Assembly: GCA_046714695.1 (NCBI GenBank)
Contig: JBKKAL010000297.1
Location: 43,407 to 107,406 of the forward strand
DNA: 64,000 nt
Direction: 5' to 3'
From: Pyrinomonadaceae bacterium
Lineage (GTDB): Bacteria > Acidobacteriota > Blastocatellia > Pyrinomonadales > Pyrinomonadaceae
This document shows positions 11,944-64,000 of this stretch, in pieces (the stretch's first letter is position 1; each line of letters opens with the position of its first letter). The position numbers and the translations under genes are program-made. The notes beneath the pieces were generated by a model. The model had not been told where the DNA came from. It ran no database searches and saw only the letters and a list, made by a program, of their open reading frames with translations.

Positions 11944-12003
11944 TAAAGAGTAAGACGGTCAATCCGGAACGGGAATGCCGACTTTTAAAGACCTGTCAGT
12001 TCA

Positions 12004-13086: not shown

Positions 13087-13202
13087 GACCGCGCTTGCAC
13101 CTCTCTGATGAACCCTTAAAATCGTAGCTGAGAAAGGTTACACGTGGATATTCATTCGATGCAAGTTGCTGGGCTCATCGTACCCGCTTGACAAAGAATA
13201 AG

Positions 13203-13253
13203 AAATAGAACTACTTTAGTTACATTTGAAATGTAACTAAAGTAGTTCTATTT
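13203..13253. promoter_or_regulatory. perfect 25-1-25 palindrome, probable operator overlapping the Rrf2 gene promoter
   Basis: AAATAGAACTACTTTAGTTACATTT-G-AAATGTAACTAAAGTAGTTCTATTT with no mismatch. TTGACA at 13188-13193 lies just upstream, and a possible -10 TACTTT (13212-13217) sits in the left arm. The Rrf2 start is 16 nt downstream. Confidence 0.6.
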
Positions 13254-13268
13254 AGCGACGGACGGAAC

Positions 13269-22917: not shown

Positions 22918-22919
22918 AG

Positions 22920-27405: not shown

Positions 27406-27752
27406 TCATCGAAAACAGCGATCAGACCTATTACCCGGCATTAATTTTAACGAGATTAGTATGAAAAGCTTGCTATTGGTCGTTTGATCTGCTAGAAGCC
27501 CTGTTCTAACTAGGCCCGCGCTCTTTTTCAACTCGGCTTTATTTCCGTTAATGGCTAAGTTTGAACCCAAACGACTAACTTCTTAATCTGCGCCCCTGAT
27601 GAAATATTTCGCCTCAAAACTCCATATAAATTGAGCGAGAAGCATTCAGGAACATTGGCCTACGACTTAATTCCTCGAAGCTTTCAATTATCCCCTAACC
27701 TGTGGTTTGGACTACAGCATTGGCCCCAAATAGTTCAAGGAGAGAGTTCCCC

Positions 27753-49100: not shown

Positions 49101-50089
49101 AGCAGTTGGGCGCAGACATGGTCGTCTCGGCTGCTTATGTGGGCACGCTGGGACGTAATCTGCTGCGATTCACGACGCCGAATCTGGGCACGAATGCGGT
49201 AATTTTGCCCGATCGTTTCTCGGTCGATATCAGCGGTCCTTCCCGATTCGAGCCAAACTTTTTCGGCATTGCCGTTGCGCCCGGCACGCGCCTGACACCA
49301 GCGGGCGATGGTTTTACGGGCGGGCGACCACTGAGCGCGCTGGGCGGCATCAGCATCTTTGAAACTTCGGCCAACTCGCGCTACGACGCTCTGCAATTGC
49401 AGGTGACAGGCCGCTTCCAACGCTCACTGCAATACCAGGTATCCTACACGCTCTCGAAAGTGACGGACGATGTATCGGACGTGTTCGAGTTGGCGGGAGC
49501 AGCGGCTTTACCGCAGAACAGTCTGACGCGCGCGGGCGAGCATGGGCCCGCCAATTTCGACGCGCGTCATCGCTTCACTTACAACTTCGTTTACGACTTT
49601 CCCGCTTTTCGCCGCCGCAGCCGCGCCCTGCGTTTCATCTTTGACGGGCTGCAAATCGCCGGCATGGGTCGTTTCCAGACCGGACAGCCCTTTACAGTCA
49701 ATAGCATCTTTGACGTCAACCTTGATGGTAATCTGACGGATCGTTTGAATAGTTTGAATGGGATTAACCTTACGGGTGATCGTCGTCAACCGCTGCGGCT
49801 GGGGACAAATAATCTAACGTCCCTGCTGGCGCGGGTCGGCGAGGATGGAGGTGTCGGACGCAACACTTTTCGCGCCGGAAGTATTCTGGAATTGGATATG
49901 ACGCTGAGCAAGACTTTCAAGTTCAGTGAAACCCGGCAGCTCACATTGCGCATGGATGTCTTCAATTTTATCAATCGAGCTAACTTCGGTGTCCCGGTTC
50001 GTTTCCTGGAAGCTCCGGGCTTCGGGCAGGCCCTGGACACGATCACGCCCGGACGGCGCATACAGTTCGCTTTGAAATACTCCTTTTAA
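46199..50089 (+). CDS. TonB-dependent-receptor-like outer-membrane beta-barrel with N-terminal CarboxypepD_reg-like domain
   Basis: 1296 aa with the signal peptide MSSHTRIGSRWIIIFALSLTPFLARSGATSAQD. The CarboxypepD_reg-like stretch is GTVTNSQTDATIGGASVEIINQQTALVIAKRTDSRGRFYQGLLTPGIYRIRVSAPGF, followed by a Pro/Thr linker. A plug-like segment is present (GLRSRANNFTVDGSDNND). A long barrel ends in the aromatic C-terminus IQFALKYSF. Confidence 0.8.
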   Translation: MSSHTRIGSRWIIIFALSLTPFLARSGATSAQDTVTGAFEGTVTNSQTDATIGGASVEIINQQTALVIAKRTDSRGRFYQGLLTPGIYRIRVSAPGFQTREVIQRLFITRTGEVVPVPVSLDPAPAVPALPIPSTQPGTGPATGSATTTAPTQPSLSVRDTDVRAGINTTDARRGGAFTEEEVSTLPLGATTLTRTFDELTLLLPGVALAPQTLGGGVGPGVGAGVGTSGQFAVNGLRSRANNFTVDGSDNNDEDIGVRRQGFFSLIPQSIESIREYQAITLLAPAQFGRNIGAQVNAVSKSGGNETHATLYGFFNSSQLNARNFFDSARGNAISQLRSSNQLVISAPALSFNNATLNFDAVGGRPVTIQNQSGGEDSFTFAQGGFVIGGPLVPDKLFYFISAEGQVLNATREASFIVPTVAQRGAFGSGASGIFRDPYDLDPEFSFPTTAGGDAIFSLFPFPNDPQGSYGANTFTQVLPSSAQGKILSGKFDSNFAFKGRQQSLTGRYNFTDDWRQIPVTGGALFSTLRPRVRTQNFSFFVNSEISGPDSLVPIFNQLRLSYGRTRLKFEEDRDRTFLLPSNRFPSTPFLLNAPLRENFTLPNIINNQLVANQGPVILRNIQTVEDQLGPVGQVIVAGFSPIGVDVFNFPQRRVNNTYQFADHVTVRFGNHNMVFGTDNRRTELNSDLPRNERPLITFQGAPELDLRPDNSLAFTGNFVRPEDLAAASAASGFFQTLTGGTDAAINLRFYQFNFFGQDEWHIRPNLSISYGLRYEYNTPAREVNRRVEESFESPALGLIPGLSRFIAGRRQIFDPDRNNFAPRFAIAYSPDLFGRNHATVIRGGYGLFFDQILGAVVSQSRSVFPRFVTVNLAGGLGNLFFPNLPLTLLNPSDPRLPNGDPVDIGLVSGGTLNRLDPALSLADQIALINLLASAGGQLPGASGIEVTLPARRLPMPNAHHYSLSFEQQLGADMVVSAAYVGTLGRNLLRFTTPNLGTNAVILPDRFSVDISGPSRFEPNFFGIAVAPGTRLTPAGDGFTGGRPLSALGGISIFETSANSRYDALQLQVTGRFQRSLQYQVSYTLSKVTDDVSDVFELAGAAALPQNSLTRAGEHGPANFDARHRFTYNFVYDFPAFRRRSRALRFIFDGLQIAGMGRFQTGQPFTVNSIFDVNLDGNLTDRLNSLNGINLTGDRRQPLRLGTNNLTSLLARVGEDGGVGRNTFRAGSILELDMTLSKTFKFSETRQLTLRMDVFNFINRANFGVPVRFLEAPGFGQALDTITPGRRIQFALKYSF

Positions 50090-50201: not shown

Positions 50202-53200
50202 CTATCTTTTGATGGCGATCAAAGGTACTGGCGTATCCCGACGATAAAAGGCGCGCGGGCGCTGGAGGCTGCGCTTCTCCATATCTGACATCTGCTCCTC
50301 GCCCTCGACGAAAGCGACTTCCGCGCCGACGCTGCGTCCCTGTTTCATCTTTTCTACCTGCATCTGTGGCACGCGCTCGGTCGCGTAATCAAGCCACTCC
50401 TGTAACAGCACCTGCCCATCTCTGGGCGCGCGGTCTGCTGCCGACTTTTTGAGCCCCTCTTCCACCAGCGCGTAGGTCAAAAGCCCGTGCCCGAGTTGCG
50501 TTGCTTCCAGCGCAGCCTGATAGCTTTGCGCCGCCGTCAGGATATACATGCCCTTCTCGTAAGCGAGTTGCGCCAACCCCTTCGAGTTCATGGGCCCACG
50601 TCGCTTCTCTTCAGCTTCAAGCGCCTGCCCGGAGTTGCATGCATCGAGCACCAGAAGGAGTTGACCGGCACTGATCTTCTCAAAGGCTCCTTCCATCTCA
50701 AGATCTGAGATGCTATGGGCGAGGATTGATTGGAAGCCCGCTTCATCAAGCCGGCGGCGCGAGCCCTGGTAGCCCAGATCATGCGGTAAGAGGTAGAAGC
50801 GCGCCTGATGCGCCAGACCGTGTCCGGCAAAATAAATGATAACGGCGTCTTCCGGTTGAGCGGGTTTAAGTTTCGAGAGTTCGGCTGGCGCTCCGGCCAT
50901 CAACGTGTTCGTGTCAATCCCGGCGAGACGGTTCAAGGCGCTCATGATGTTTGCCTTGGTGGCCTGTTGATCCAGGAGAGGTATCACCTCTATGTTGCTG
51001 AAGCGGCCGAGGAGGTTCTGCTGGCTGCGACGAACCTCATCGCTAAACTCATTGGCGTCGGGGACGGCGAATTTCAGGTTGTACTGAGGATTAGCATAAG
51101 TGTTGACGCCAATGGCGAGGATATAAGCGGTGGCCGGTTGTTTGAGGCTCGACGCTCCATTGATCGAGAGAGTATTGTCTGCGCTCTTGATATTGTCGCG
51201 ATTGAACGCATAAACGTTCAACTGGTTCTTGCCGGCAATGACTGGAATGGTAACGTCTAAAACCGCCTTGCCGCCGCCGTTTAAGACATCACCGCGCCAT
51301 ACCTTGACGAGCGAGCCGTTGCGAAAGAGCCTGACATCACGCGCTCCGCTGCCCGTCGCGTGATGGCTGTCGGGCGGCGCTTCATCCACTTCTATCTTGA
51401 CCGCCAGCTCTCGTGTCGCAACGCTTTCCACCTTTTCCCCCTGCGAGCCTTCTGCGCCGACCCTGACGGCAATGCTCGGCTGTCGGCGATCCAGGCGCGT
51501 TATATCCTTTGGCGCTCGCGGGTTCTTACGCGCGAGGATGTCTGCGAGGAGTCCCGGATAAAAAAATTCATTAAAGAATACCTCGACGGGTCGGACGTTG
51601 AGAGTGTTCTGTTCGAAGCGCCAGAGAATCTGTCCCCAGGCGGCGGGCGAGCCGTCAAAGAGCCCATCGGGCGAGACCACCAGCCAGTCCGTATGTTCTG
51701 CCGCAAGGCCCTCGGCACTCTCGCGTAATGAGACTAAAGTAGCGGCGAGTTGGCCTGTGCCGGCGTCCCAGATGCGCGAGCTACCGTCTTCGCTGCCGGA
51801 GGCAAACCATCTACCGTCACGGCTGAAACTGACCGAATAGACCTCACTGGAATGGCCCGTCAGCGTTCGCAGTTCCTTTCCCGTCGCCGCCTCCCACAGC
51901 TTGACTGCATTGTCTTTGCTGCCGGAAGCGAGCACCCGCCCGTCGGGGCTAAAAGCGACGGCTTTCACTTCTGCCGCATGGCCCGTCAGCGTGCGCAGTT
52001 CCTTTCCCGTCGCCGTCTCCCACAGCTTGATGGTTTTGTCAGCGCTGCTCGATGCCAGCCACTTGCCGTCCGGGCTGAAAGCAGTAGCGCCCACTTCTGC
52101 CGTATGGCCCGTGAGTGTGCGCAGTTCCTTTCCCGTCGCTGTCTCCCATAGCTTGATGCTCTTATCCGCGCTTCCTGTAGCGAGCATCTGGCCGTCGGGA
52201 CTAAAAGCAAGCGCATAAATCTCCGCGCTGTGACCCGTGAGCGTGCGCGCTTCAAGGCCCGTCTTCGTCTCCCATATCTTCGCAGTGTTATCGCCGCTCG
52301 CGGTCGCAAGCCATTTGCCGTCGGGACTGAATGCCAGTTGGTTGACGCTAGAGGTGTGGCCCGCAAGGCTGCGCACTTTTTGTCCGGTGGCAGTTTCCCA
52401 GATCGTCGTCGCGCCGCTCAAGCCCGCGGCGGCGAGCAGGCTTCCATCCGGACTGAAGGTGACGGCATTGATGAAACCGCTGTTGGGATCAAGCGTGCGC
52501 AACTCGCGGCCCGTCTGTGTTTCCCAAAGCTTGACTGTATTTTCCTTTCCCCCGGTGGCGAACCAGCGCCCTTCGGGGCTGAAAACAACGGCCGCGACTC
52601 CGTATGAATGCGTGGAGAGCGTATGCACATCCTGGCCCGTCGCTCTATCACGGAGGGTAATTGTTTTATCTCCGCTGCTGAGCGCCGTCCAACTACCGTC
52701 ATGGCTGAATGCCATCGCGATGGCTTCGAGCCGAGGCTCACCGTTTGATCCGCTATTATTTTGACTCTCTCCCCATGTCTGCACATCCCAAAGTCTGACT
52801 GCATTATTGGAGCTTCCGGCGAAGAGCCGCTTTCCATCCTGACTGAAAGCGACGGCGATAACCTTGCCGGGAGCGTTGAGTGTCTTCTGCTCGCGTCCAT
52901 TGCTCGCCTTCCAAATCTTCACAGCAGAGTCGAGCCCCCCCGAAGCCAAAAGCTCTCCATTCGGGCTGAAGTCGAGCGCCTTAACCTTATCCGTATGGCC
53001 CGTCAGCGTGCGCAGTTCCTTTCCCGTCGCTGTCTCCCATAGCTTGATGGTTTTGTCGGCGCTCGCTGTCGCCAGCGTTTGACTGTCGGGGCTGAAAACG
53101 ACGGCCGTGATAGGCCCGCCATGGCCGCCCAGCACAGCGCGCGCCGCGCCCGTCTGAACGTCCCATATTTTGACTGCATTCTCCATATTGCCGGAGGCGA

Positions 53201-53696
53201 AAGATCGCCCGTCGGCGCTGAAGGCGACGGCGCTGACGCTGCCCGCTTCCAAAAGACTGCGCACTTCGCGACCCGTAGCGACATCCCAGAACTTAACGCT
53301 CCCGTCGACGGAGCCTGAGGCCAGGAGTTTCCCATCCTGACTGAAAGCCACAGCCCTGATGCCACGCGCATGACCTGTCAGGCTACGGACTTCGCGTTTT
53401 GTCGCTACATCCCAGAGTTTGACCGTATTATCACCGCTCCCGGAGGCGAGTAGTTGCCCTTCGGGGCTGAATGCGAGGCTGTCCACACGCATCGCATGGC
53501 CGGTTTGTAAAACCAGTTCAGGTCTGCTGCCCGTACCGACCTGGGCCGGGTTCGTAAAAGATGCTCGCGTGGGCGGCGAGAGGAAGCCCTGGGCCGCTGA
53601 GAGAAAAAGCGCGAAGGCCAACGGGACAAAGAGCGAGACTGGAGTTCTGATATTCTTCATAAGAGCTTTGGAATTGATGGGTATGTTTGGTTTCAT
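50202..53696 (-). CDS. signal-peptide WD40 (14 repeats) - linker domain - C-terminal caspase-like (peptidase C14) protein
   Basis: The ORF is open to 53816. Likelier starts are ATG 53696 (MKPNIPINSKALMKNIRTPVSLFVPLAFALFLSAAQG) or 53660. It has 14 WD repeats (xAFSPDGxxLASGSxDxTIKLWE). The caspase dyad motifs are AVIIYFAGHG (His) and LLLVLDACNSG (Cys), within about 50205-51240. Confidence 0.85.
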   Translation of the reverse strand: MKPNIPINSKALMKNIRTPVSLFVPLAFALFLSAAQGFLSPPTRASFTNPAQVGTGSRPELVLQTGHAMRVDSLAFSPEGQLLASGSGDNTVKLWDVATKREVRSLTGHARGIRAVAFSQDGKLLASGSVDGSVKFWDVATGREVRSLLEAGSVSAVAFSADGRSFASGNMENAVKIWDVQTGAARAVLGGHGGPITAVVFSPDSQTLATASADKTIKLWETATGKELRTLTGHTDKVKALDFSPNGELLASGGLDSAVKIWKASNGREQKTLNAPGKVIAVAFSQDGKRLFAGSSNNAVRLWDVQTWGESQNNSGSNGEPRLEAIAMAFSHDGSWTALSSGDKTITLRDRATGQDVHTLSTHSYGVAAVVFSPEGRWFATGGKENTVKLWETQTGRELRTLDPNSGFINAVTFSPDGSLLAAAGLSGATTIWETATGQKVRSLAGHTSSVNQLAFSPDGKWLATASGDNTAKIWETKTGLEARTLTGHSAEIYALAFSPDGQMLATGSADKSIKLWETATGKELRTLTGHTAEVGATAFSPDGKWLASSSADKTIKLWETATGKELRTLTGHAAEVKAVAFSPDGRVLASGSKDNAVKLWEAATGKELRTLTGHSSEVYSVSFSRDGRWFASGSEDGSSRIWDAGTGQLAATLVSLRESAEGLAAEHTDWLVVSPDGLFDGSPAAWGQILWRFEQNTLNVRPVEVFFNEFFYPGLLADILARKNPRAPKDITRLDRRQPSIAVRVGAEGSQGEKVESVATRELAVKIEVDEAPPDSHHATGSGARDVRLFRNGSLVKVWRGDVLNGGGKAVLDVTIPVIAGKNQLNVYAFNRDNIKSADNTLSINGASSLKQPATAYILAIGVNTYANPQYNLKFAVPDANEFSDEVRRSQQNLLGRFSNIEVIPLLDQQATKANIMSALNRLAGIDTNTLMAGAPAELSKLKPAQPEDAVIIYFAGHGLAHQARFYLLPHDLGYQGSRRRLDEAGFQSILAHSISDLEMEGAFEKISAGQLLLVLDACNSGQALEAEEKRRGPMNSKGLAQLAYEKGMYILTAAQSYQAALEATQLGHGLLTYALVEEGLKKSAADRAPRDGQVLLQEWLDYATERVPQMQVEKMKQGRSVGAEVAFVEGEEQMSDMEKRSLQRPRAFYRRDTPVPLIAIKR
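51852..53063 (-). repeat. near-identical intragenic WD40 repeat DNA copies
   Basis: ATGGCCCGTCAGCGTGCGCAGTTCCTTTCCCGTCGCCGTCTCCCACAGCTTGATGGTTTTGTCAGCGCT at 51978-52046 matches 52995-53063 at 66/69. Shorter copies start at 51852 and 52104. All four encode KLWE(T/A)ATGKELRTLTGH. Confidence 0.8.
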
Positions 53697-53974
53697 GCGC
53701 CAGAGAATTGAGGACGAAAGGCCGCCTGCTCGTTTGACGATTTGTTGAATCCCTTTTTTTAAAGCGACCAACAATAAAAAGTTTTTTTCGAGTGAGCCGA
53801 ACGCCAGAAAAATCAATGAAGAATACGGGATCTCTTACGTATAATGAAAAGCGTCGCCAGCGAAAGCTCGTCGGAATAGACCGGCCTGTGACGTTGATAA
53901 CCGCACAGTAGGCGAGCCGCCCGATGATTGTCAAGCCCCTTTTAGACGGGCATCCCGGCACGCCTGCCTTGATA

Positions 53975-54004
53975 TTGACCAATGATCTGCGGCGGCCGTA
54001 CAAT
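53975..54004 (+). promoter_or_regulatory. sigma70-like promoter candidate with ~365-nt leader for the CHASE2-cyclase gene
   Basis: TTGACC (53975-53980), an 18-nt spacer, then TACAAT (53999-54004). Confidence 0.3.
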
Positions 54005-54369
54005 TACCCAACTTGCAGACTTTTTATTCTTTTAAGTTTCGAGTAACTGGGGATTCCGGTAGTGGATCGGTTTCAGAACAAACAATTGCCTTCTTCAACT
54101 ATTCCGCCAGGCGCCAATGAAACGTTTTGCCCCAAATCTGCATTGATATTTAGAACAGGTTAGGCGGGATAATTACCCCTGGATGGCTCAAACCGGAGAG
54201 AGGCCCATTCGGATCTGAAATTGACTTACCGGCTCGAATCCCATCTGCTCCTGCGAGCAGTCATCAACGGGGCCATTTTTATACCATCCATCTGTTTTTC
54301 GTCACTCGGCTCTGGATGATTCTTTCATTCCGAACTCGTATAGTTTCGACGATTCCCCGCTGGCATTAA

Positions 54370-56454
54370 GTGCTTATGCCCCTCGTCCGTCGCTATTCAT
54401 TTACGCCTTACCTATTACGCCGTTGGTACTGGGCTCTGGCTCTTATCCTGACGTGCGCAGTCTGGATTATTTCGGCGTTGGCGATGCGTCCTTTGAAGGA
54501 TGCCGACGGCTCTTACGCGTCGCGTCCATATGGGCTCACGACCGGGCTTGAAAATCAGGCGCTTGATCTGCTCTTCCAGGTGCGTGACGTGCGGCGACCG
54601 CAGCAACGCATGCGCGGATTCAGTGAGCCGATTACGATTATAGAGGTTGACGAGGCGGCCATTAAAGCTTCAGGCGTGCGTCTGCAAAAATGGCCGCGCG
54701 ATTGGTACGCGCGCCTCGTGGATCGCGCCAGCGAGGGCGGAGCAACTGTCATCGGACTCGATTTTTTCTTGAGTGAAGCGGGAGGGCGCTCCACCGAAGA
54801 CGCCAAAACTGATCAGCAGTTGGCAGAATCCATTGCCAATGCCGGAAACGTCGTCGTGGCGATGAAGCTCGATGCCGGAGGCTACGAGGCAATCAACCCC
54901 CTTCCGATGTACGGCCAGGCGGCATGGGCCACGGGCTTCGTGGACGTTCCGGTCGATAACGATGGGTTCGTGCGCAGCCTGCTGCTTTTTCGCGCGCGAC
55001 CGGGGGAGAATACAGAGTTCAGCTTTGCGACCCGCGTGGTTGAGGGGCATCTATTGGCCCAGGCCTACTCACAGAAGTTAACGGAGTTACAGGGTCGCGC
55101 TTTGAGCGAAGAAGCGGCTGCCGATGAGGCCGCGCAATATGCGCAGCAAAAGTCCGAGATGAAGCCCTGGGGTAAAGACGCGATCATGATAAACGAGCGC
55201 GTCATTGCTCTGCGCAACGACAATACACTCCAGCTTGATTACCGTACGCGCCCCCCGGCATTTCGTCGCATCTCTGCCGCAGACCTTCTTTTCAACGATC
55301 AGGCACAGATTTCGGATGACCTGTTCCGCGACCGTATTGTGCTTATCGGATCAACTAATATAGATGCTCCTGATCTTTTTCCGACGCCATTTTATGAAGC
55401 CTCATGGCTGCCACGCCTGCTCGACAGGCGCATGCCGACCGCGCCTGCGCGGACTCCCGGTGTCGAGTTGCATGCGACGGCTGCGGCGACGATGCTGTTC
55501 GGCAATACGCTGACGCGCCCGCGTTATCGCTGGCAGGTATCTTTGCTGCTGCTGCCTCTGGTGTTTGCGGCGCTCGCGGTATTTCGCCTGCGTGCCCTGT
55601 GGGCCTTGCTGGCCGTCTTCCTGCTCGCGCTGGCCGTGCTCGTCGTCGCTCTTTTGGCGTTCAGCAGCCGTGGAATGATTCTGCCGCTGGCGACCACATG
55701 GTTGGGCCTCGTCCTGCTTGCGCCGACAGGCCTCGGCCTGCGCTACGCGCGTGAGCATATGCTGCTTGGTGAGAAGGAGGCAGAGCGTGCGCAGGTGATG
55801 GACATCCTTTCGCGCTGTGTCTCGCAGAACGTGGCCGAAGAGCTGTGGCAGCGGCGCGACCAGATTGTCAGCGGCGAACGACGTATCGTCACCATCATGT
55901 TCACGGATATACGCAACTTCACCACGCTCTCGGAGACGGCCGCTTCGGATGATCTGGTCGAATGGCTCAACGATTATTTCAGCCGCATGCACGAGAGCAT
56001 CGAAGCCCACTGCGGGCATATAGACAAATTTATCGGCGATGGTTTGATGATCGTCTTCGGCGCGCCGGCTTCGCGCGGTGATGAAGCGGAAGCGCGTGCG
56101 GCGGTCGCCTGCGGCCTTCAGATGCTTGATGAAGTCGAGCGCATGAACGAAGAGTGGAAAGAATTGGATCGCCCGCAGATTAGGATTGGCGTCGGCATAC
56201 ATACGGGCGAGGCCACCTGTGGCGTGGTCGGTGCGGAGCGCAGGCTTGAGTATACTGTCATTGGGGATACTGTGAATCTGGCTGCCCGTCTTGAATCAAC
56301 GACCAAGGAGTATGGTGTGCCCTTGCTGATTAGCGAGGCGACGGCGCGCCTGCTCAATGAGGATTTTGAGGCGCATGCGCTCGGCGAAGTTAAAGTCAAA
56401 GGCAAAAACGCAAGTACCCGAATTTACACCGTCAAGCAAAGGAATCCATTGTGA
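54370..56454 (+). CDS. CHASE2 sensor domain - 3 TM - class III adenylate/guanylate cyclase
   Basis: 694 aa with a GTG start at 54370 or ATG at 54376. An N-terminal TM is followed by a ~330-aa extracytoplasmic region with CHASE2-like motifs (LDLLFQVR, ITIIEVDE, GATVIGLDFFL, GFVDVPVDNDGFVR). Three TM helices follow. The cyclase core is IVTIMFTDIRNFTTLSE...FIGDGLMIVFGAP...IGVGIHTGEATCGVVG...YTVIGDTVNLAARLES. Confidence 0.85.
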   Translation: MLMPLVRRYSFTPYLLRRWYWALALILTCAVWIISALAMRPLKDADGSYASRPYGLTTGLENQALDLLFQVRDVRRPQQRMRGFSEPITIIEVDEAAIKASGVRLQKWPRDWYARLVDRASEGGATVIGLDFFLSEAGGRSTEDAKTDQQLAESIANAGNVVVAMKLDAGGYEAINPLPMYGQAAWATGFVDVPVDNDGFVRSLLLFRARPGENTEFSFATRVVEGHLLAQAYSQKLTELQGRALSEEAAADEAAQYAQQKSEMKPWGKDAIMINERVIALRNDNTLQLDYRTRPPAFRRISAADLLFNDQAQISDDLFRDRIVLIGSTNIDAPDLFPTPFYEASWLPRLLDRRMPTAPARTPGVELHATAAATMLFGNTLTRPRYRWQVSLLLLPLVFAALAVFRLRALWALLAVFLLALAVLVVALLAFSSRGMILPLATTWLGLVLLAPTGLGLRYAREHMLLGEKEAERAQVMDILSRCVSQNVAEELWQRRDQIVSGERRIVTIMFTDIRNFTTLSETAASDDLVEWLNDYFSRMHESIEAHCGHIDKFIGDGLMIVFGAPASRGDEAEARAAVACGLQMLDEVERMNEEWKELDRPQIRIGVGIHTGEATCGVVGAERRLEYTVIGDTVNLAARLESTTKEYGVPLLISEATARLLNEDFEAHALGEVKVKGKNASTRIYTVKQRNPL

Positions 56455-56495
56455 TGGCCCGGCCCCGTTCATGCCTCGGCCAGGAGGTCATGCAA

Positions 56496-56537
56496 ACGAA
56501 TATAGAATATTCGTACAAATCGTTGTCTTTCTATAAT
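56496..56537 (+). promoter_or_regulatory. 8-bp-arm palindrome followed by a perfect TATAAT upstream of the DUF928-like gene
   Basis: ACGAATAT-aga-ATATTCGT spans 56496-56514 and TATAAT lies at 56532-56537. The palindrome covers the expected -35 position. Confidence 0.3.
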
Positions 56538-56583
56538 ATTACTCTCGGGTCTTGATACACTTTCAGGGAAGAAGGAGAAAGTC

Positions 56584-57315
56584 ATGTCACATCCAAGCAA
56601 GCTCATTTCACGTCTATCGTTAATCGGTCTCTCAATTTTACTTTCGAGCCTGATCGGCTTCGTCATGGTCGAAGCCCAAAACAAACCGGCGGCGCGGCGA
56701 CCGCTGCCGAAGCCCAAATCGGGCTCGCGCGGCTTTGAGCAGTCTGCGTCGCGGGATGCCTCATCAAGACTTATCAGCGGCGGGGCGACGCGCGAGGTGA
56801 CGAGTTTTCGCAAGCCGATAGCTCCAATGCTCGGTCTGGCTTATGATGCCCGACCCTTTTTCAAGTGGAGCCCGGCCTTCGGCACAAAGTCATATCATTT
56901 TACGCTCTATGATGGAGATGTAAATTCTACTGCCTCTGTGCCTGTCGTCTTTGAGACCGATACGACCGCAACGCAACTGGTCTATCCCAAGGACGCGCCG
57001 GCTCTCCAACCCGGAACGCTCTACTCCTGGAGGGTGCTGACCGAATTTGAAGGCAAAAAGGAGCTGGGGCCGGCGGTCACATTCTTTATCCTCGCGGGGC
57101 AGGATGCGACCGATGTAAAGGCGGCTTTAGAGCAGGTCAAATTAACTGCGCCGGTCACGGCTGCTGATCGTTTACGGCAGGCTAAAGTTTTTGAGGAGTA
57201 TGGCGTCTGGTACGATACGCTTCGCATTAGCGATGAGGTGACGGCGCAGAATACCAGCGATACCGAGGCCCAGGCTTACTATGATTCGCTTTTAGACAAG
57301 CTCGAAGGTAAGTAG
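56584..57315 (+). CDS. secreted DUF928-like protein
   Basis: AAGGAG Shine-Dalgarno and signal peptide (LISRLSLIGLSILLSSLIGFVMVEAQ). The core pattern is RPFFKWSPAFGTKSYHFTLYD...LVYPKDAPALQPGTLYSWRV, matching my recollection of DUF928 (P.F.W...Y.F.L.D...YP...L..G..Y.W.V). Confidence 0.65.
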   Translation: MSHPSKLISRLSLIGLSILLSSLIGFVMVEAQNKPAARRPLPKPKSGSRGFEQSASRDASSRLISGGATREVTSFRKPIAPMLGLAYDARPFFKWSPAFGTKSYHFTLYDGDVNSTASVPVVFETDTTATQLVYPKDAPALQPGTLYSWRVLTEFEGKKELGPAVTFFILAGQDATDVKAALEQVKLTAPVTAADRLRQAKVFEEYGVWYDTLRISDEVTAQNTSDTEAQAYYDSLLDKLEGK

Positions 57316-57472: not shown

Positions 57473-57874
57473 ATGAATCAAGGAGCCGCTCGCGCTCAAA
57501 AAATTCTGGTGGTTGACGATGTCGAGACGATGCGCGATATGCTGAAAGCATGGCTCGAGGGGCTCGGTTACAGCGTGCTGATCGCCGAAGATGGACAACA
57601 AGCCGTCGAGACGGCGAAGCGCGAGCTGCCCGACCTTGTTTTGATGGATATAGGTATAGGCCCCCAGAGCGGTCTTACTTCTGTGGCCCAGATGCGTGAA
57701 GACGCAAAACTCGATGGTACTCCGGTTGTGGCCCTGACGGCTTACGATTCGCCGGGCCTGCGCCTTGATGCTGAGAAAAAGGGCTTCGATGAATACGTCA
57801 CCAAGCCATTCGTTCCAGAGGAACTGGGGCAGCTCATAGAAAAGCTTCTGAGCAAACCTCGAACGCACCTTTAA
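57473..57874 (+). CDS. stand-alone response-regulator receiver (CheY-like)
   Basis: ILVVDDVETMRDML, the phospho-acceptor context DLVLMDIGI, and VVALTAY...KPF. Confidence 0.85.
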   Translation: MNQGAARAQKILVVDDVETMRDMLKAWLEGLGYSVLIAEDGQQAVETAKRELPDLVLMDIGIGPQSGLTSVAQMREDAKLDGTPVVALTAYDSPGLRLDAEKKGFDEYVTKPFVPEELGQLIEKLLSKPRTHL

Positions 57875-57965: not shown

Positions 57966-58715
57966 ATGCGGTATCAGGGCGAGCAGTCGAGGCGCAGGCG
58001 TGAGCGCATGGCGATGCCTCTGCCCGTGCAGGTTGAGGCGAGAGAGAGCGCAGACCACAGTTGGGTCGAGGAGAGCAAACTGATTGACGTCAGTCCCTTT
58101 GGCGCGCGCTTTGTGATTAGCCATCCCACAGAGCCTGGACGCCTGCTACATTTAACGAGTCCCTTGCCGCGCCCTCTTCGTTGTTTCGATTTTGATGTGG
58201 AGCAATACAAAGTCTGGGCTCTGGTTTGCCACATCAAACCGCTTTCACTGGAACCGGAGCGAATGCCGCGCTTTGAGGTCGGCGTCGCTTTCACAGGTCA
58301 GCACGCGCCTCAGAACTTTGAAAGAGATCCGGCCATATCTTACGAAATCACACCCGCTGCGAACCAGGATAGTCTGTGGAACTTAAGTGAAAAGCAGCAA
58401 CCTGAAGCGACCGGAAGTGTTGCCCGTGAGCGGCGCGCAGAACCGCGATACGAGAAGGCGGATGAGGTCGTGATTGAGGTATACGATGCAGAAGGAAACG
58501 TCTTTGCGCGCGAGACGACAAGGACGGAGAACATCAGCCGGCGCGGCATGTGCATTATTACAGATCTGAATATCACCCGCGGGCGCTACATACGCATTAG
58601 AAGCCCACACCACCATATCGCCGTCATCGGTGCCGTGCGTCGTTTACGAAGAGATGCTGATGGTCTGAAGCGTCTTCACCTGGAATTCGTTGACCAGCAG
58701 TGGCCGCCCCTTTGA
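57966..58715 (+). CDS. tandem PilZ-domain protein (predicted c-di-GMP binding)
   Basis: It has two RxxxR ... (D/N)xSxxG pairs: RRRRER...IDVSPFGARF and RRAEPR...TENISRRGMCI. Confidence 0.7.
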   Translation: MRYQGEQSRRRRERMAMPLPVQVEARESADHSWVEESKLIDVSPFGARFVISHPTEPGRLLHLTSPLPRPLRCFDFDVEQYKVWALVCHIKPLSLEPERMPRFEVGVAFTGQHAPQNFERDPAISYEITPAANQDSLWNLSEKQQPEATGSVARERRAEPRYEKADEVVIEVYDAEGNVFARETTRTENISRRGMCIITDLNITRGRYIRIRSPHHHIAVIGAVRRLRRDADGLKRLHLEFVDQQWPPL

Positions 58716-58867
58716 TGAATCGCAAGCGGGCTCAGGTAGTCGCCCACTGCATCAAAAATCATTAGAGCTTTTAGCGATAACCTACAGCACCCGCCGCAAC
58801 CAAGTGATAAGTAGCGTGCCTAGCCTCAGTTTATAGCCTTTAGTGGATTGACGGGATAAAGAGCGTA

Positions 58868-59926
58868 ATGGCCGAGGCGCAACTCCAGGTTGATGAAATT
58901 CTGCTTCCCTTACTCCACGCCTCGGATGAGTCGGAGTCGCAACGCCTCATTGCGAACATCATCTCGGAACATGCCGACTCGGTTATCAGAGATATTATCA
59001 AGTACAAGTTGTGGGACTTTACCAGGGCGGTTGATAATGGGCGACTGGCGGCGGACGCGGAGGACATCTATAACGATGCCGTCATGCAGTTGCTTGAGCG
59101 GCTGAATTTATTCAGAGCCGACCCCGAACACAACGCTATCGGCCAACTACGCAGCTATGTCGCAGTTATAACCTACCACTGCTGCTATCGTTACCTACGG
59201 CAGGTTTATCCGCAGCGACACATTCTGAAGAACAGGCTACGCTATCTTTTGACGCGTCAAACAGGCTTCTCGCTCTGGGAGAGCGCGGATAAAAAGACCT
59301 TGTGTGGTTTTGCGGCCTGGCGCGGACGCGCCCCGGCGTCCCACGCCGAGAGAGTCAACCAGCTTCTGCAACAACCCGAAGTTTTGGAGCAGATGAGAAT
59401 TAATGCTTCCGATATATCACGCGCCAGGCCAGCGGATTTGATTGCGTCGGTCTTTACTTTTATAGAAGGCCCCATCGCGCTGGACGAGTTAGTAAACATA
59501 GCCGCAAGACTATGGGGTGTTAAAGACCAGGAATCCGTGTCTGAACCTGAGGGAGATGAATCTGTACTGTCTGCAAGAGAACAAGGCGACCTTGGCGCGC
59601 AGGTGGATAGAAGAGACTATCTTCAAAAGCTATGGCGGGAGGTACATCAGCTTCCCGTAGGGCAACGTGCGGCCCTTCTGCTGAACCTGAGGGGAGCGGA
59701 AGGACGCGGCTGTATAGAGTTGTTTCAATTCGCCGGTGTAGCGACCATAAGGCAAATAGCCGATGCTCTGGAAATTCCTATGGAACAGTTCGCGGCGCTC
59801 TGGAATGAGTTGCCCATGGATGACCTGGCGATTGCAAAGCGTTTGGGGCTCAATCGGCAGCAGGTTATCAACTTGCGCAAATCGGCCCGCGCCCGCCTCG
59901 CCCGGAGAATGAAAAACCTTGAATAG
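58868..59926 (+). CDS. ECF-like sigma-70 family factor with ~130-aa insertion between regions 2 and 4
   Basis: The region 2-like stretch is EDIYNDAVMQLLERL...LRSYVAVITYHCCYRYLRQ. The region 4-like stretch is LPVGQRAALLLNLRG...IAKRLGLNRQQVINLRKSARARLARRM. At 352 aa it is much longer than a typical ECF factor (~180-200 aa). Confidence 0.65.
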   Translation: MAEAQLQVDEILLPLLHASDESESQRLIANIISEHADSVIRDIIKYKLWDFTRAVDNGRLAADAEDIYNDAVMQLLERLNLFRADPEHNAIGQLRSYVAVITYHCCYRYLRQVYPQRHILKNRLRYLLTRQTGFSLWESADKKTLCGFAAWRGRAPASHAERVNQLLQQPEVLEQMRINASDISRARPADLIASVFTFIEGPIALDELVNIAARLWGVKDQESVSEPEGDESVLSAREQGDLGAQVDRRDYLQKLWREVHQLPVGQRAALLLNLRGAEGRGCIELFQFAGVATIRQIADALEIPMEQFAALWNELPMDDLAIAKRLGLNRQQVINLRKSARARLARRMKNLE

Positions 59927-60029
59927 TCTATTTTATTATTGACCGGCTGGTAATATCCTGTCTGTTTACGAACCAGTAATAAATGAAGGGCGAAAGGTAA
60001 TCGCTCCGCTGAAAGAAACAGAAGCACAC

Positions 60030-61352
60030 GTGACCGAACATCTCACAGACAGACAAATAAAGCTCTACCATGACTGCACAATCACTGCCGCGGAGCTTGT
60101 CGGCCTGGATAGCCATGCTTCAGCCTGCGCCGATTGTCGTCGCAGGCTGGCCGCCACGGGGCAGGAAGAGCAGAAGTTTCTCTCACTCAAAAAAGTCTTT
60201 GATTCCGCATCCGAGGACCATCCTGATTACGAGCGCTTTGCGGCCTACGTTGACGGCACGTTGATGAAGGAGGCGGCGGGGCTCATGGAAGCTCATCTGT
60301 CTGCGTGCCGGGAATGTCAGTTAATGGTGAGCGACCTGATGGTCTTCAGGGACGAGGTCGCGCCGGATTTCAATAAGGTGTACGCCCCGCCCGCGAGCTC
60401 CCCCGATTCAACTTCATTAGGGCGACGTTTGATGGCATCGTTAAATTCCGCCTTCGCCTTTAAGTCGCCGGCCCTGACCATGAGCTTCGCGTTGATGGCG
60501 CTCTTTATCATCGGAGTTGTTTTCTGGTTAGTCCTCCTGCGCTCCTACAGGCCTCGTGACACACAGCCGCAGGTCGCACAGAGCCCGACTTCAACGCCCG
60601 CGCCGGAGGTGAACGCCCAAGGAGATAATAATAATCCAGCCCCGACGCCTGAAGCAGCGCCTGAAGCACCTCCGGTTTTGCTCGCCCTTAATGACGGCGC
60701 GCGTCGCGTTGCTGTTGATAAAGAGGGAAATTTAACCGGATTGGACGAGTTGCCGCCAGCGCACCGGCAGGCCATCAAAACGGCCTTGACCACGCAGCAG
60801 GCTGCAAATGCTTCGGCGCTCGCAGGTCTTGGTAAAAGGGGCGGAGGGCTCAGGGGTGCAGGCGACAACTCCACCTTCGGGCCGCTCAACCCCGTAGGCA
60901 AAGTCATACTCACGGACAGGCCTCAACTCAACTGGAGTCGTTTGGACGGGGCGAGCCATTACCGGATCATTATCTACGATTCAGATTTCAACGTTGTCTC
61001 TTCGAGTCAAGAGCTTACGACGAACAACTGGACAGTGCCGCGCTCCCTTGACCGGGGCCGGATCTATTTGTGGCAGGTGGTGGCGACCAAAGATGGTCAG
61101 GAGACAAAAGCGCCCGTTCCTCCTGCTCAGGAAGCAAGGTTCAAGGTGTTGGAGCAGAGCAGGGCTAATGAGCTAAGTCAGGCTCGCAGGTCTTATGCGG
61201 GGTCGCATCTGTCCCTGGGTGTCCTTTACGCGCAGGCGGGACTGCTAGAAGAGGCCGAGCGCGAGTTCAGACTCCTGCTCAAAGCCAATCCAAATTCAGA
61301 TGTCGCAAGAAACCTCCTGCGCAACATCAGAACGACGCCTCGCGTTCGTTAG
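60030..61352 (+). CDS. zf-HC2 anti-sigma factor, single TM, periplasmic DUF928-like + TPR-like domain
   Basis: GTG start. It has two Zn-finger-like motifs (HASACADCRRRL, HLSACRECQ) and one TM helix (LTMSFALMALFIIGVVFWLVLL), followed by a Pro-rich linker. The periplasmic part then reads RPQLNWSRLDGASHYRIIIYDSD...LDRGRIYLWQVVA, followed by LGVLYAQAGLLEEAEREFRLLLKANP. Confidence 0.75.
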   Translation: MTEHLTDRQIKLYHDCTITAAELVGLDSHASACADCRRRLAATGQEEQKFLSLKKVFDSASEDHPDYERFAAYVDGTLMKEAAGLMEAHLSACRECQLMVSDLMVFRDEVAPDFNKVYAPPASSPDSTSLGRRLMASLNSAFAFKSPALTMSFALMALFIIGVVFWLVLLRSYRPRDTQPQVAQSPTSTPAPEVNAQGDNNNPAPTPEAAPEAPPVLLALNDGARRVAVDKEGNLTGLDELPPAHRQAIKTALTTQQAANASALAGLGKRGGGLRGAGDNSTFGPLNPVGKVILTDRPQLNWSRLDGASHYRIIIYDSDFNVVSSSQELTTNNWTVPRSLDRGRIYLWQVVATKDGQETKAPVPPAQEARFKVLEQSRANELSQARRSYAGSHLSLGVLYAQAGLLEEAEREFRLLLKANPNSDVARNLLRNIRTTPRVR

Positions 61353-61388
61353 AAAATCGTTTAATAATTTCCCTCAAGCTCGTAGCTG

Positions 61389-64000
61389 TTATCGCCTGTC
61401 TCCGACGAGGAGGAAGCTGGCCCAGTAGAACGGATGCCTGTATTCCGGGGTTCGCATTAAGCTGATTGCTGCCGCACGTAGTGATTTGGCTTTCCTGTTT
61501 CGAGATGTAGGTTTATCAATCTCCGCCTTCAGATTGCTGTGAAAGTTCAGCATCAACTCCTTGGTGACGATCGAATCTACCTTCCACTGGCTGACGACCG
61601 TTGCGGGGCTGCCAGCCACGAAAAGAGCCCACGTCAGGCCTATCACTCCTTCGCCCGCGCCGAAACGTCCGCGCGCCGTCTCGCACGCGGAGAGCACTAC
61701 CATGTTGGCACGCAGGTCTAATTTCGTTATCTCCCGCGCCTCAAGCAGACCGTCCTCGCCGGGCTCACCCTGTGACAGCACGATATAGGAATACATCGGG
61801 TTCGTATCGTTAAGCACGCCGTGTGTGGCGAAGTGGATGATGGAGAATTTACCGATCTCTTTCTTGGCACGTTCTTCGCGCGCCTCCACGCGAGTGTAAA
61901 CGCGGCTGCGCGACGGCCCATAGATTTGAGCCAGTTTTTTTACTTCATCCTCGGTTTCCGGCAGCGGTGCAAGTGGCTCGCCGCCACTGCCGCGTGCGGC
62001 GCGGGCACGCTCAACAGTTAACTTCCCGAGTGTCGGATTACCGAAGGCCAGCAGCATAAAGTTATCTGCCTTGATCGTGGCAGTCTCCGTCCGACGCAAG
62101 GTTTGCATCTCCAACAGCACTGAAAGAGAGGGAGCGTAAGCGATGGCGCTCTCTTCGATCAAAAATCTATTCGGCTTCGACATCAGGGCCTGGAAGGGAA
62201 GCTCCCAGAGCACATCGTCGGGCACGATGACCAGATCGCTGCGCCCCTGTAACTGCGCATGAGCCGGGGCAAGGAGCAGATCATAAAAGTTTCTGGAAGG
62301 CTCTCGAAAGCCCGGGTCACGAGCGGCCAGGGCACGGCGATAGGTTTCGACGCGTTGGGCCAAATCTTTGCGCTTAATCTCCACGGGATAAACCTTCAAA
62401 TCCGCAACCGTTTGATTGGCGAGTATGCTTCTTGTCAGCACGAAGAGGTATGTGCGCTCTTCGGTGACCACGTACTGGAGAAGAGCTGTTGCGGCGTCGG
62501 GCAAAAGCTCCAATGTTTGTATTGGCTCCATGATGCGCGCTTTGCCGCGTCGGAGTTTCAGTTCCGGGTGCGAGGCGTAGAGCGCGGTTTCAAATGCTTC
62601 ATGATCAAGGCGCGCTTTTTGTTGCCTCTTCTCCAGCTCTGCGAGGCGTTTCGCCTGTGGCGAGGATTGCTGGCGCTCGCGCGTTATCTGCGCATTGAGC
62701 GAGATCATCTCATTATTGAGCCGTCTCTCCTCGATCTGCTCGGCGGCGCTCATGGATTTTGTCACGTTGGCCCTGCCACTCTGTAGAACATCCAGTAGCA
62801 CGCGCCCCTTCGCCCGCTCGGCGTAAGAGAGAGCCTCGTAGAGTCTGTTCTGCCCGATCAGTAGCTCGACCATAGCGTAATAGGGCGAAACCTGGCGCTC
62901 AAAGAATTTCTGCTCGTCGCGCGCGCCTCCGGCGGCGAAGCGGCGCAGTTCTTCGACGGATTCAATCGCATCGTTGAAAGCCTTCTCGGCCTCCCTAGGT
63001 TTTCCCGTCGCATGCAGGGTCCGACCCAAGGTCGTATAGGCCGCGGGCCGCTCGGCAGGCTGGTTCAGTTCTTCCGTGATTCGTATGGCGCGCTCCGCGT
63101 GCTCTACGGCGCGTTTATAATCGCCCAGGGAGTAGTAAACATCGGCAAGGTTCTGATTGACCAGTGCACGGTTGCGCTTGACCTTGACCTCTTCGAATAA
63201 CGCATCAGACCTTTTGTAATACTCAAGTGCCTTTTGCAACTCACCCCGCAGGCGATATACGTCACCGCTGCTATTTAAGAGGCTGGCTATTCTGTGTCTG
63301 TCCTTTATCTCTTCGGCTATCGCCGTACTGTTCTGTAGGTATGTGAGCGACTGCTGCAGATCACCCATCAATCCGTACATATCGCCGATGCGGTTCAAGG
63401 TGTCGGAGACCCCCTCTTTCGTGGCGCTGCGTTTCTCCAACGCACGCTTATAATAATCGAGCGCCAGTTCGTAGTTGCCCTGGCGGGCGTGTACGCCCGC
63501 GATGTTATGAAACGCTATGCCTACGTCGTCGTTAAGCCCCAATTGCTCCTTTAACACAAGGGATTTCTGGTAATACTCCAGTGCCAGGGCCGTGTTGCTC
63601 TGGTAGAAATAGAGATTGCCCAGAAGATTATTGGCGCGCGCGGTAAGCTGTTTGGCTTCGCCCGATTCCGCCAGATATTTCCGCGCCAGTTCGAGCGCCA
63701 GGTCAATCTGGCCGAGTTCCACGTAGGTCGTACTCAGGTTGCCGCGCACGGCGCTGGCGCGAGGCCTGTTACCCAACTCCTCGTAGAGCGCGAGCGAACG
63801 CGTGAAATAATCTATGGCCTGCGTGTAGTCGCGCAGGAAATAGGCGAGCCCCCCCAGACCGTTGAGCGCCGTCGCTATCCCCTCCTTATCCCCCATTTCC
63901 TCCTTGATGCTGAGGCTCTTTCGGTAATTCTCCTCCGCCAGATCGTATTTGCCTTGAGACCTGAAGACGTTCCCGATGTTACGCAGCGTAGACCCCTGCG
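61389..64000 (-). CDS. TPR-repeat CHAT-domain (caspase-fold) protease, 5' end beyond window
   Basis: The reading frame stays open upstream of the listed ATG (63896) to the window edge, still encoding TPR (..LRNIGNVFRSQGKYDLAEENYRKSLSIKEEMGDKEG..). More than 10 TPRs are present. The C-terminal CHAT domain carries the His motif FSIIHFATHG and the Cys motif MVVLSACETARG. Confidence 0.85.
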   Translation of the reverse strand, partial: QGSTLRNIGNVFRSQGKYDLAEENYRKSLSIKEEMGDKEGIATALNGLGGLAYFLRDYTQAIDYFTRSLALYEELGNRPRASAVRGNLSTTYVELGQIDLALELARKYLAESGEAKQLTARANNLLGNLYFYQSNTALALEYYQKSLVLKEQLGLNDDVGIAFHNIAGVHARQGNYELALDYYKRALEKRSATKEGVSDTLNRIGDMYGLMGDLQQSLTYLQNSTAIAEEIKDRHRIASLLNSSGDVYRLRGELQKALEYYKRSDALFEEVKVKRNRALVNQNLADVYYSLGDYKRAVEHAERAIRITEELNQPAERPAAYTTLGRTLHATGKPREAEKAFNDAIESVEELRRFAAGGARDEQKFFERQVSPYYAMVELLIGQNRLYEALSYAERAKGRVLLDVLQSGRANVTKSMSAAEQIEERRLNNEMISLNAQITRERQQSSPQAKRLAELEKRQQKARLDHEAFETALYASHPELKLRRGKARIMEPIQTLELLPDAATALLQYVVTEERTYLFVLTRSILANQTVADLKVYPVEIKRKDLAQRVETYRRALAARDPGFREPSRNFYDLLLAPAHAQLQGRSDLVIVPDDVLWELPFQALMSKPNRFLIEESAIAYAPSLSVLLEMQTLRRTETATIKADNFMLLAFGNPTLGKLTVERARAARGSGGEPLAPLPETEDEVKKLAQIYGPSRSRVYTRVEAREERAKKEIGKFSIIHFATHGVLNDTNPMYSYIVLSQGEPGEDGLLEAREITKLDLRANMVVLSACETARGRFGAGEGVIGLTWALFVAGSPATVVSQWKVDSIVTKELMLNFHSNLKAEIDKPTSRNRKAKSLRAAAISLMRTPEYRHPFYWASFLLVGDRR

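Follow-up and report, generated by a model that had tools for sequence, protein, structure and literature searches.

The locus described here lies at one end of a 64,000-nucleotide stretch of the Pyrinomonadaceae bacterium assembly GCA_046714695.1 (phylum Acidobacteriota; contig JBKKAL010000297.1, positions 43,407 to 107,406 of the forward strand), referred to below as the window, and consists of three genes, encoding a sigma factor, an anti-sigma factor, and a large protein that joins tetratricopeptide repeats (TPRs) to a CHAT protease domain. In the map of open reading frames (ORFs), the sigma-like gene, of 352 amino acids (aa), occupies 58868-59926 of the plus strand and is followed on the same strand by the anti-sigma gene (60030-61352, 440 aa), also recognised by its zf-HC2 domain, with the TPR-CHAT gene on the minus strand from 61389 to beyond 64000. 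The anti-sigma and TPR-CHAT genes are convergent, and their stop codons are separated by the 36 nt of 61353-61388. The TPR-CHAT ORF is still open at 63998, the window encoding residues 180-1048 of its product. An earlier note on this DNA had described the same gene order, tail-to-tail arrangement and 36-nt gap, and had placed the 5′ end of the CHAT gene outside the window, and the ORF map agrees with it in each respect. The sequence farther on was supplied by a Logan contig, L001, retrieved through an exact-protein look-up of the anti-sigma factor, which is identical to the window at 10981 of 10981 shared bases and reaches 7.3 kb past 64000. Beyond the CHAT gene, L001 encodes a 167-aa secreted protein, small CARDB paralogues, and glycosyltransferases, all on the plus strand.

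CRISPR arrays and their associated genes were looked for in several ways. Tandem Repeats Finder detected no array in the 64-kb window, only coding repeats; Pfam scans revealed no Cas-like ORF there, all sizeable ORFs being housekeeping or other chromosomal genes or genes for giant surface proteins; and PADLOC returned no match for the sigma or the anti-sigma factor. The earlier note's statement that the 64 kb hold neither a cas gene nor a CRISPR repeat is thereby borne out, and the extension past 64000 that it had called for gave the same answer, the 7.3 kb of L001 on that side having no Cas7-11, no csx30/31 and no array.

A conserved three-gene module in Acidobacteriota

Scanning one genome per species with the sigma factor yielded 80 loci, mostly from Pyrinomonadaceae and other Blastocatellia, with some from Bryobacteraceae and Solibacter, and at least some genomes have more than one paralogous sigma locus. 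When the proteins of the window were searched against all ORFs of these loci, the anti-sigma gene was found immediately 3′ of the sigma gene in nearly all 80, and an orthologous TPR-CHAT gene (E-values from 1e-170 to 0) no more than 6 kb away in 33 of the 39 loci with full flanks. Its placement varies: in the 53 loci where a CHAT gene is present at all, it is convergent and downstream in 45, upstream on the same strand in five, upstream on the opposite strand in two, and downstream on the same strand in one. Sigma factor identities are 39-61% among the loci that keep the adjacency, and the remaining flanks contain only about two unrelated CHAT genes in 1.3 Mb. Pairwise-identity matrices for 43 loci are correlated between sigma and anti-sigma (0.82), sigma and CHAT (r = 0.74), and anti-sigma and CHAT (r = 0.75), with a Mantel p of 0.001 in each case. 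The genes for CHASE2, PilZ, receiver and free DUF928 proteins that adjoin the trio in the window (see below) are absent from the 80 sigma loci, and no large Cas-like genes were seen beside the trio in these loci, where the module proteins alone were searched for. That a large and conserved three-gene module exists is near certain, and a functional link of the CHAT gene to the sigma/anti-sigma pair is supported, since the trio is kept in 33 of 39 loci and its members co-evolve.

An exported TPR-CHAT protease

The complete CHAT protein, read from L001, has 1048 aa, of which residues 1-179, signal peptide included, are encoded past 64000. Its N-terminus, MSHKNRNLLTLLLILSLTALCRSQE, is a Sec-type signal peptide, and it carries a large TPR array of ~700 aa (Pfam) and a catalytic domain, encoded at 61398-62303 of the minus strand, that matches the Pfam CHAT family (PF12770, clan CD) with 233 bits. 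Both catalytic motifs named in the earlier note are present on that strand, HFATHG with the catalytic histidine at 61818-61835 and LSACET with the catalytic cysteine at 61677-61694, and the columns of the dyad are at least 95% conserved across 46 sequences. Under a strict test (a Met start and then a hydrophobic core), 39 of 45 full-length CHAT orthologues have a signal-peptide-like N-terminus, most of the others have hydrophobic N-terminal stretches where the ATG start could not be assigned, and numerous orthologue N-termini finish in A-x-A/Q-like sites. Because the protein and nearly all of its orthologues bear Sec signal peptides, it is predicted to work outside the cytoplasm, and its sequence is that of an active extracytoplasmic protease. 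If so exported, it could not reach the cytoplasmic sigma-binding zinc-finger domain of the anti-sigma factor, only the periplasmic part of the latter would be accessible, and the DUF928-like domain there (see below) becomes its only plausible target.

Judged by sequence comparison, the CHAT protein is related to Csx29, the TPR-CHAT protease of type III-E CRISPR systems, and to other solved CHAT proteins at the superfamily level only. It scores 22.6 bits against the NCBIfam Csx29 model NF041237, whose cut-off is 300, and among PDB entries it matches Csx29 chains with E-values of 0.007-0.011 and the 991-aa chain 8rot_B, which, going by its length, is probably DdvA (discussed below), with an E-value of 0.017.

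An atypical sigma factor

The sigma factor scores 16.9 bits with the Pfam model Sigma70_r2, below the cut-off of 24, and ~130-150 extra residues separate its sigma2 and sigma4 regions. Homologues are plentiful, numbering more than 3680 in Acidobacteriota metagenomes, and all are ~350 aa long. An AlphaFold2 (AF2) model with a mean predicted local distance difference test (pLDDT) score of 77 gave whole-length matches to sigma28, WhiG, sigma32, SigD, and sigmaA and other primary sigma factors, and is closer to three-domain sigma factors than to two-domain ones of the extracytoplasmic function (ECF) class, although E-values were weak. On the strength of these matches to three-domain sigma factors, the conserved middle region of the modelled protein may be sigma3-like. 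The protein is a sigma-70-family, ECF-like but atypical factor and probably not a canonical ECF sigma; the sub-threshold ECF model scores and the extra middle region qualify the earlier label of ECF sigma.

A membrane anti-sigma factor with a DUF928-type periplasmic domain

The anti-sigma factor matches zf-HC2 with 33.5 bits (Pfam cut-off 22.2) and belongs to a large family, with 2960 representatives at E ≤ 1e-30 in a profile search of a library clustered at 50% identity. Two H-x3-C-x2-C zinc motifs can be read from its sequence, at 60114-60137 (aa 29-36) and 60294-60317 (aa 89-96), and the His and Cys columns of both are nearly invariant in the family alignment. Such a tandem pair departs from the usual single motif, and one of the two may serve the extra middle domain of the sigma factor. 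A hydrophobic segment, LTMSFALMALFIIGVVFWLVLL, encoded at 60474-60539 (aa 149-170), is predicted to form a transmembrane helix, after which comes a Pro/Ala-rich linker. An alignment of 70 homologues shows poor conservation in this region. By its sequence features, the protein is an anti-sigma factor of the single-pass zinc-binding anti-sigma (ZAS) type, in which a ZAS domain at the N-terminus is predicted to be separated from the C-terminal domain by one transmembrane segment.

An AF2 model of the C-terminal region (pLDDT 92.3; predicted template modelling score, pTM, 0.88) consists of a unit formed by a beta-hairpin plus a helix, a disordered stretch at aa 272-280 (pLDDT below 50), a sandwich resembling a fibronectin type III (FN3) domain, and four TPR-like helices. 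The FN3-like beta-sandwich and the helices, encoded at 60876-61349, constitute a periplasmic DUF928-type domain. It aligns with the DUF928 family by hhalign at a probability of 97.9% (E 5.5e-13, 159 columns), and the anti-sigma factor has no match at E ≤ 0.01 to the Pfam model itself (PF06051), and so falls below the Pfam threshold. The domain is, on this profile evidence, a divergent homologue of DUF928, as the term DUF928-like in the earlier note had implied. PDB neighbours of the modelled region are FN3 domains and the C-terminal domain of MtxA. In four giant proteins of 2220-3818 aa from the representative search (P0348, P0360, P0408, P0440), the FN3-like portion (profile positions ~285-373) of the DUF928-type domain is repeated in tandem, in 16-33 copies.

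Directly before the FN3-like sandwich, AF2 and the alignment define a disordered but conserved loop with the motif G-x-L-[M/L/R]-G (aa 268-281, encoded at 60831-60872), in which the Leu is followed by M in 40 of 70 homologues, by L in 21, and by R in 6. A flexible loop bearing a conserved motif is what one would expect a protease site to look like, and we regard this loop as a candidate cleavage site. Setting the residue after the invariant Leu (M or L as against R) beside the CHAT alignment, column by column, gave no usable result, with only five R-type loci in two clades; suggestive co-variation, such as R517E charge swaps, is confounded by phylogeny and falls outside the catalytic domain. 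The anti-sigma factors of four Solibacteraceae/Bryobacteraceae loci (L049, L055, L066, L068) have ~340-370 aa, and at least L055, L066 and L068 retain the loop motif. No CHAT or caspase gene lies within 10 kb in any of the four, and no caspase-fold gene was found in the CHAT-less loci; the protease of these four may be encoded elsewhere or be a different one.

A promoter-like motif shared by the loci

Enrichment of k-mers upstream of the CHAT genes, followed by a position weight matrix (PWM) search of 1.32 Mb, identified a recurrent intergenic motif. In the orientation in which it was found, the enriched k-mer TATTACC has gAAGAYG ~17 nt upstream and AAAATTTTT downstream. On the opposite strand, the same ~48 nt read as an UP-like AAAAATTTT, N8, TGGTAATA, N15 and C(G/A)TCTT, an orientation that we tentatively favour on the census of gene starts given below and that, as a sequence pattern, would have the layout of a promoter with UP-like, -35 and -10 elements. 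CGTC-type -10 elements are typical of ECF promoters. One copy (PWM score 25 bits) lies in the sigma/anti-sigma spacer of the window at 59932-59979, in the favoured orientation on the plus strand, with TGGTAATA at 59948-59955. A second, at 11716-11768 of L001 (equivalent to ~64735-64787 in window numbering), faces the gene cluster headed by that for the 167-aa secreted protein.

The 1.32 Mb contain 126 PWM matches, ~100 of them within module intergenic regions. Of the 73 sigma/anti-sigma spacers, 43 contain the motif, at a distance of 34-129 nt 5′ of the anti-sigma start; 45 copies lie beside the 5′ end of the CHAT gene and 10 upstream of sigma, and further ones occur just past the anti-sigma gene when a locus has its CHAT gene at some other place. 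When read as TGGTAATA...CGTCTT, a gene start follows within 400 nt, mostly at 65-135 nt, for 101 of 125 matches, as against 56 of 125 in the TATTACC orientation. The genes downstream in the former orientation are those for the anti-sigma factor and for varied proteins, mostly with signal-peptide-like N-termini; ten of these products were scanned and include a subtilase, a GH3 enzyme, FG-GAP proteins, a galactose-oxidase-like protein, and a MauG peroxidase. Reading the motif as a hairpin or terminator was inconsistent between instances when inspected by eye, and scans of 58600-61500 for generic sigma-70 promoters and for terminators gave nothing above shuffled expectation.

On L001, just after the outward-facing motif beside the CHAT gene, seven small genes occupy 11950-15449. 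The product of the first of them has a signal peptide, five of the seven have CARDB domains, and genes for GT2 and GT4 glycosyltransferases then follow. These seven genes and the glycosyltransferase genes are candidate members of a regulon.

A second DUF928 context and other neighbouring genes

Upstream of the sigma gene, the window contains another set of genes in which a DUF928 protein adjoins a caspase-fold protease. On the plus strand, Pfam identifies a class III adenylate/guanylate cyclase with a CHASE2 domain (54370-56454), a secreted DUF928 protein (56584-57315; 43.6 bits, cut-off 26), a receiver domain (57473-57874), and a PilZ protein (57966-58715). Divergent from the CHASE2 and DUF928 genes, on the minus strand at 50202-53660, is a gene for an exported WD40-repeat protein with a signal-peptide-like start, MKNIRTPVSLFVPLAFALFLSAAQG, and a C-terminal caspase-fold domain that matches Peptidase_C14 with 30.3 bits and CHAT with 25.6 bits, its dyad lying in the motifs YFAGHG (50817-50834) and LDACNSG (50628-50648); PADLOC likewise gives a caspase match. 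PADLOC matches of the cyclase to PycC are generic and are owed to the class III cyclase fold. A tblastn search of PLSDB plasmids with the DUF928 protein of the window had no match.

The order CHASE2-cyclase and then DUF928 recurs in L083, L084, L086, L087 and L088, loci taken from a sample of DUF928 homologues, and a gene for a repeat-domain protease adjoins the pair in five of the six such loci examined. In L083 and L087 this gene encodes a TPR-CHAT protein, in the other three (the window, L086 and L088) a WD40 protein. Both TPR-CHAT proteins have signal peptides, that of L083 being 25% identical to the window CHAT, and the WD40 proteins of L086 and L088 are of similar size, occupy the same position, and bear C-terminal FAGHG and DACNSG motifs. 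The window has both DUF928 contexts, anti-sigma factor and CHASE2 cyclase, side by side and with a protease gene for each. No indirect argument for an action of the protease on this domain, or through it, is stronger than the company that DUF928 keeps with caspase-fold proteases in two signalling contexts. A broader idea, which we offer tentatively and consider possible but less than probable, is that DUF928-type domains would be dedicated receptors or substrates of caspase-fold proteases that are exported, whether TPR-CHAT or WD40-caspase, in a widespread periplasmic "caspase" signalling layer with two read-outs, transcription through a fused ZAS anti-sigma factor with a new family of three-domain-like sigma factors, or cyclic nucleotides through CHASE2 cyclases. 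Within the literature library searched, no paper treats DUF928 together with CHAT, or the CHAT domain together with CHASE2. In Nostoc punctiforme, a DUF928 protein is clustered with a CHASE2 sensor and WD40 proteins (PMC5587647), the same WD40/CHASE2/DUF928 trio as at 50202-57315 of the window; unlike the main module, in which DUF928 is fused to an anti-sigma factor, that cluster is not known to be tied to a sigma/anti-sigma pair.

PilZ joins the cyclase/DUF928 pair also in L084 and L088, the window itself pairing an adenylate/guanylate-type cyclase with a PilZ protein, and a PDEase_II/Lactamase_B_2 gene (cyclic-nucleotide phosphodiesterase-like) lies nearby in L084 and L087. Elsewhere in the window, a single 6111-aa ORF on the plus strand (27702-46037) has FG-GAP, PD40, Calx-beta, CarboxypepD_reg, LTD and DUF4214 domains and is followed by the gene for a 1296-aa TonB-like outer-membrane barrel (46199-50089), the two looking like a giant surface protein and its companion. 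At 22000-23537 of the plus strand, adjoining a lipocalin gene, is a MerR-family regulator with B12-binding domains, the architecture of CarH-like light sensors.

Relation to known signalling systems

In regulated intramembrane proteolysis, as in the DegS/RseP-RseA and PrsW/RasP-RsiW systems, a site-1 cut in an anti-sigma factor is followed by the action of a site-2 protease and release of the sigma factor. The module shares with these systems a single-pass anti-sigma factor and, as proposed here, a periplasmic site-1 cut; it differs in that the site-1 candidate is a clan CD caspase-fold enzyme with a TPR array rather than a serine protease or metalloprotease, and in that the protease gene adjoins that of its presumed substrate. 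Its closest known counterpart is the DdvA-DdvS system of Myxococcus xanthus. There, DdvA is a ZAS anti-sigma factor fused to a periplasmic TPR-CHAT region of ~900 residues, for which a role as site-1 protease ahead of RseP has been proposed, with cleavage in trans of the partner protomer's linker; DdvA truncated of its TPR-CHAT region is degraded in an RseP-dependent manner; and, outside Myxococcota, such fusions have been reported from a single Comamonas species only (PMC11506125). Common to both are a zinc-finger anti-sigma factor with a single transmembrane helix, a periplasmic TPR-CHAT with a His-Cys dyad, a flexible periplasmic segment as the proposed cut site, and a proposed logic of CHAT and then RseP. 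In the module described here, however, the TPR-CHAT protein is separate and secreted, so that cleavage in trans would link two different polypeptides; the anti-sigma factor bears a DUF928-type domain of FN3-like and helical parts; the sigma factor, 352 aa long, contains an extra middle region; the family belongs to Acidobacteriota; and the flanks encode assorted secreted proteins, with no defence island adjoining.

Craspase, in comparison, is a complex that works in the cytoplasm under the guidance of RNA and cuts Csx30, a soluble protein that binds the sigma factor, its protease Csx29 doing so in a small flexible loop at or beside Met427 (PMC10028731). It resembles the module in having a TPR-CHAT protease encoded together with a sigma factor and a sigma-inhibiting protein, and in the position of the cut at or near a Met in a flexible loop, to which the L-M/L/R-G of the candidate loop may be compared. 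It differs in compartment and guidance, the protease of the module being exported and Cas7-11 and an array being absent, and in the inhibitor, which here is a classical membrane ZAS anti-sigma factor instead of a Csx30. A further parallel is provided by ECF54, a sigma group described as having no anti-sigma factor, with CHAT, subtilase and carboxypeptidase genes in its genomic context and proteolytic control proposed (PMC8999054); a CHAT-domain gene is thus conserved near an ECF-type sigma in both cases, whereas nearly all loci of the present family do have an anti-sigma gene.

By analogy, the best reading of the module is as a split version of DdvA-DdvS. Since the protease is exported, it is to this system rather than to the CRISPR Craspase that we liken it, and its target genes are probably switched on by an extracytoplasmic cut in the anti-sigma factor. 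In proposing a circuit that joins CHAT, sigma and anti-sigma, the earlier note was right about a linked trio operating in the absence of CRISPR and wrong about the compartment; the Craspase logic it adopted does not survive an exported protease, a membrane ZAS inhibitor and a Csx29 model score far under the cut-off, and the analogues that fit better, DdvA-DdvS and regulated intramembrane proteolysis, had not been considered in it.

A proposed mechanism and its alternatives

We propose that the exported TPR-CHAT protein is a sensor acting in trans and the site-1 protease of the anti-sigma factor, a proposal in which cleavage and its place are inferred and to which we give an even chance. The ZAS anti-sigma factor would hold the sigma factor in the cytoplasm and display its DUF928-type domain in the periplasm, where the TPR-CHAT protein would sense a signal, presumably through its long TPR array. 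Once activated, the CHAT domain would cut the periplasmic part of the anti-sigma factor, most likely in the loop at aa 268-281 just before the FN3 domain, and an RseP-type site-2 protease, together with cytoplasmic proteases, would then clear the stub and free the sigma factor. The latter would transcribe from the TGGTAATA-N15-CGTCTT motif with its upstream A/T tract, the copy 5′ of the anti-sigma gene providing negative feedback and outward-facing copies driving flanking genes for secreted proteins. Several observations count against this proposal. The CHAT gene is mostly convergent and hence not co-transcribed with the sigma/anti-sigma pair, and six of the 39 full-flank loci have no CHAT gene nearby, four of these being of the Solibacter/Bryobacteraceae type with shorter anti-sigma factors. 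The sigma factor reaches only 29.4 bits with the NCBIfam model TIGR02937 (cut-off 42.9), in a match covering residues 55-347. The motif is always on the 5′ side of CHAT, whichever the strand, as would suit a promoter of CHAT itself. Even in DdvA, it is so far a hypothesis that the CHAT domain acts as site-1 protease, mutants of its dyad having no phenotype when the signal is absent (PMC11506125).

The alternative to be taken most seriously, unlikely though we consider it, is that the TPR-CHAT protein and the DUF928 domain are binding partners and not enzyme and substrate, the domain acting as a securin-like pseudosubstrate or as a co-receptor, with binding and release signalling across the membrane or exposing the anti-sigma factor to another site-1 protease, and with other envelope proteins as the true substrates of CHAT. 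The TPR-like helical end of the anti-sigma factor could dock on the TPR array of the protease, free DUF928 proteins occur as separate secreted partners of CHASE2 receptors, and separase and DdvA-type CHAT enzymes rest in an inhibited state, all of which would accord with binding; but a conserved motif in a disordered loop is more readily understood as a cleavage site than as an interface for binding, and the strictly conserved catalytic dyad implies that proteolysis matters for something. Somewhat less likely again is that CHAT is an output of the circuit, its gene being driven by the motif read as gAAGAYG-N17-TATTACC, with the anti-sigma factor sensing some other envelope cue and the copy in the sigma/anti-sigma spacer giving antisense transcription. 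In ~45 loci the motif, oriented as the CHAT gene is, does lie 80-250 nt 5′ of the start of that gene and tracks changes in its strand and position, and no conserved divergent gene or small ORF that could be its target instead was found beside or beyond CHAT. Yet, in that orientation only 56 of 125 matches have a gene downstream and ~45 copies would run antisense into the sigma gene, whereas the opposite orientation has the textbook order of UP, -35 and -10 elements and offers one rule for all four classes of location; an output role for CHAT also leaves the fusion of DUF928 to the anti-sigma factor unexplained.

Two other explanations are far weaker. That the circuit is cytoplasmic and Craspase-like, or the locus a type III-E one in decay, is suggested by the TPR-CHAT architecture, by the presence of a sigma factor and its inhibitor in one locus, and by the faint match to the Csx29 model, and is nonetheless very improbable: it is contradicted by the conserved signal peptides of the CHAT orthologues, by the lack of Cas7-11, Csx30/31 and an array in the 64 kb and the 7.3 kb beyond, and by a Csx29 score so far under its cut-off. 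TPR-CHAT genes are common in the large genomes of soil bacteria, and one of those frequent in Acidobacteria might by chance have come to stand beside an unrelated sigma/anti-sigma pair; the likelihood of this is negligible given orthologous CHATs in 33 of 39 loci and in four arrangements, about two unrelated CHATs elsewhere in the flanks, and the co-evolution of sigma, anti-sigma and CHAT in the Mantel tests.

Significance

If the proposed mechanism is true, the module would be a natural "split" DdvA, with protease and substrate on separate polypeptides, which would make the idea of a periplasmic CHAT site-1 protease testable in vitro. It would also give DUF928 a role, and many orphan TPR-CHAT and WD40-caspase proteins a partner. 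The coupling of a CHAT protease to a sigma factor would then occur beyond CRISPR systems too. The sigma/anti-sigma family is new and very large: its clusters in soil metagenomes run into the thousands, at least some genomes have several paralogues, and it brings to the Acidobacteria, a dominant yet poorly understood soil phylum, a candidate promoter motif and a candidate regulon of secreted proteins.

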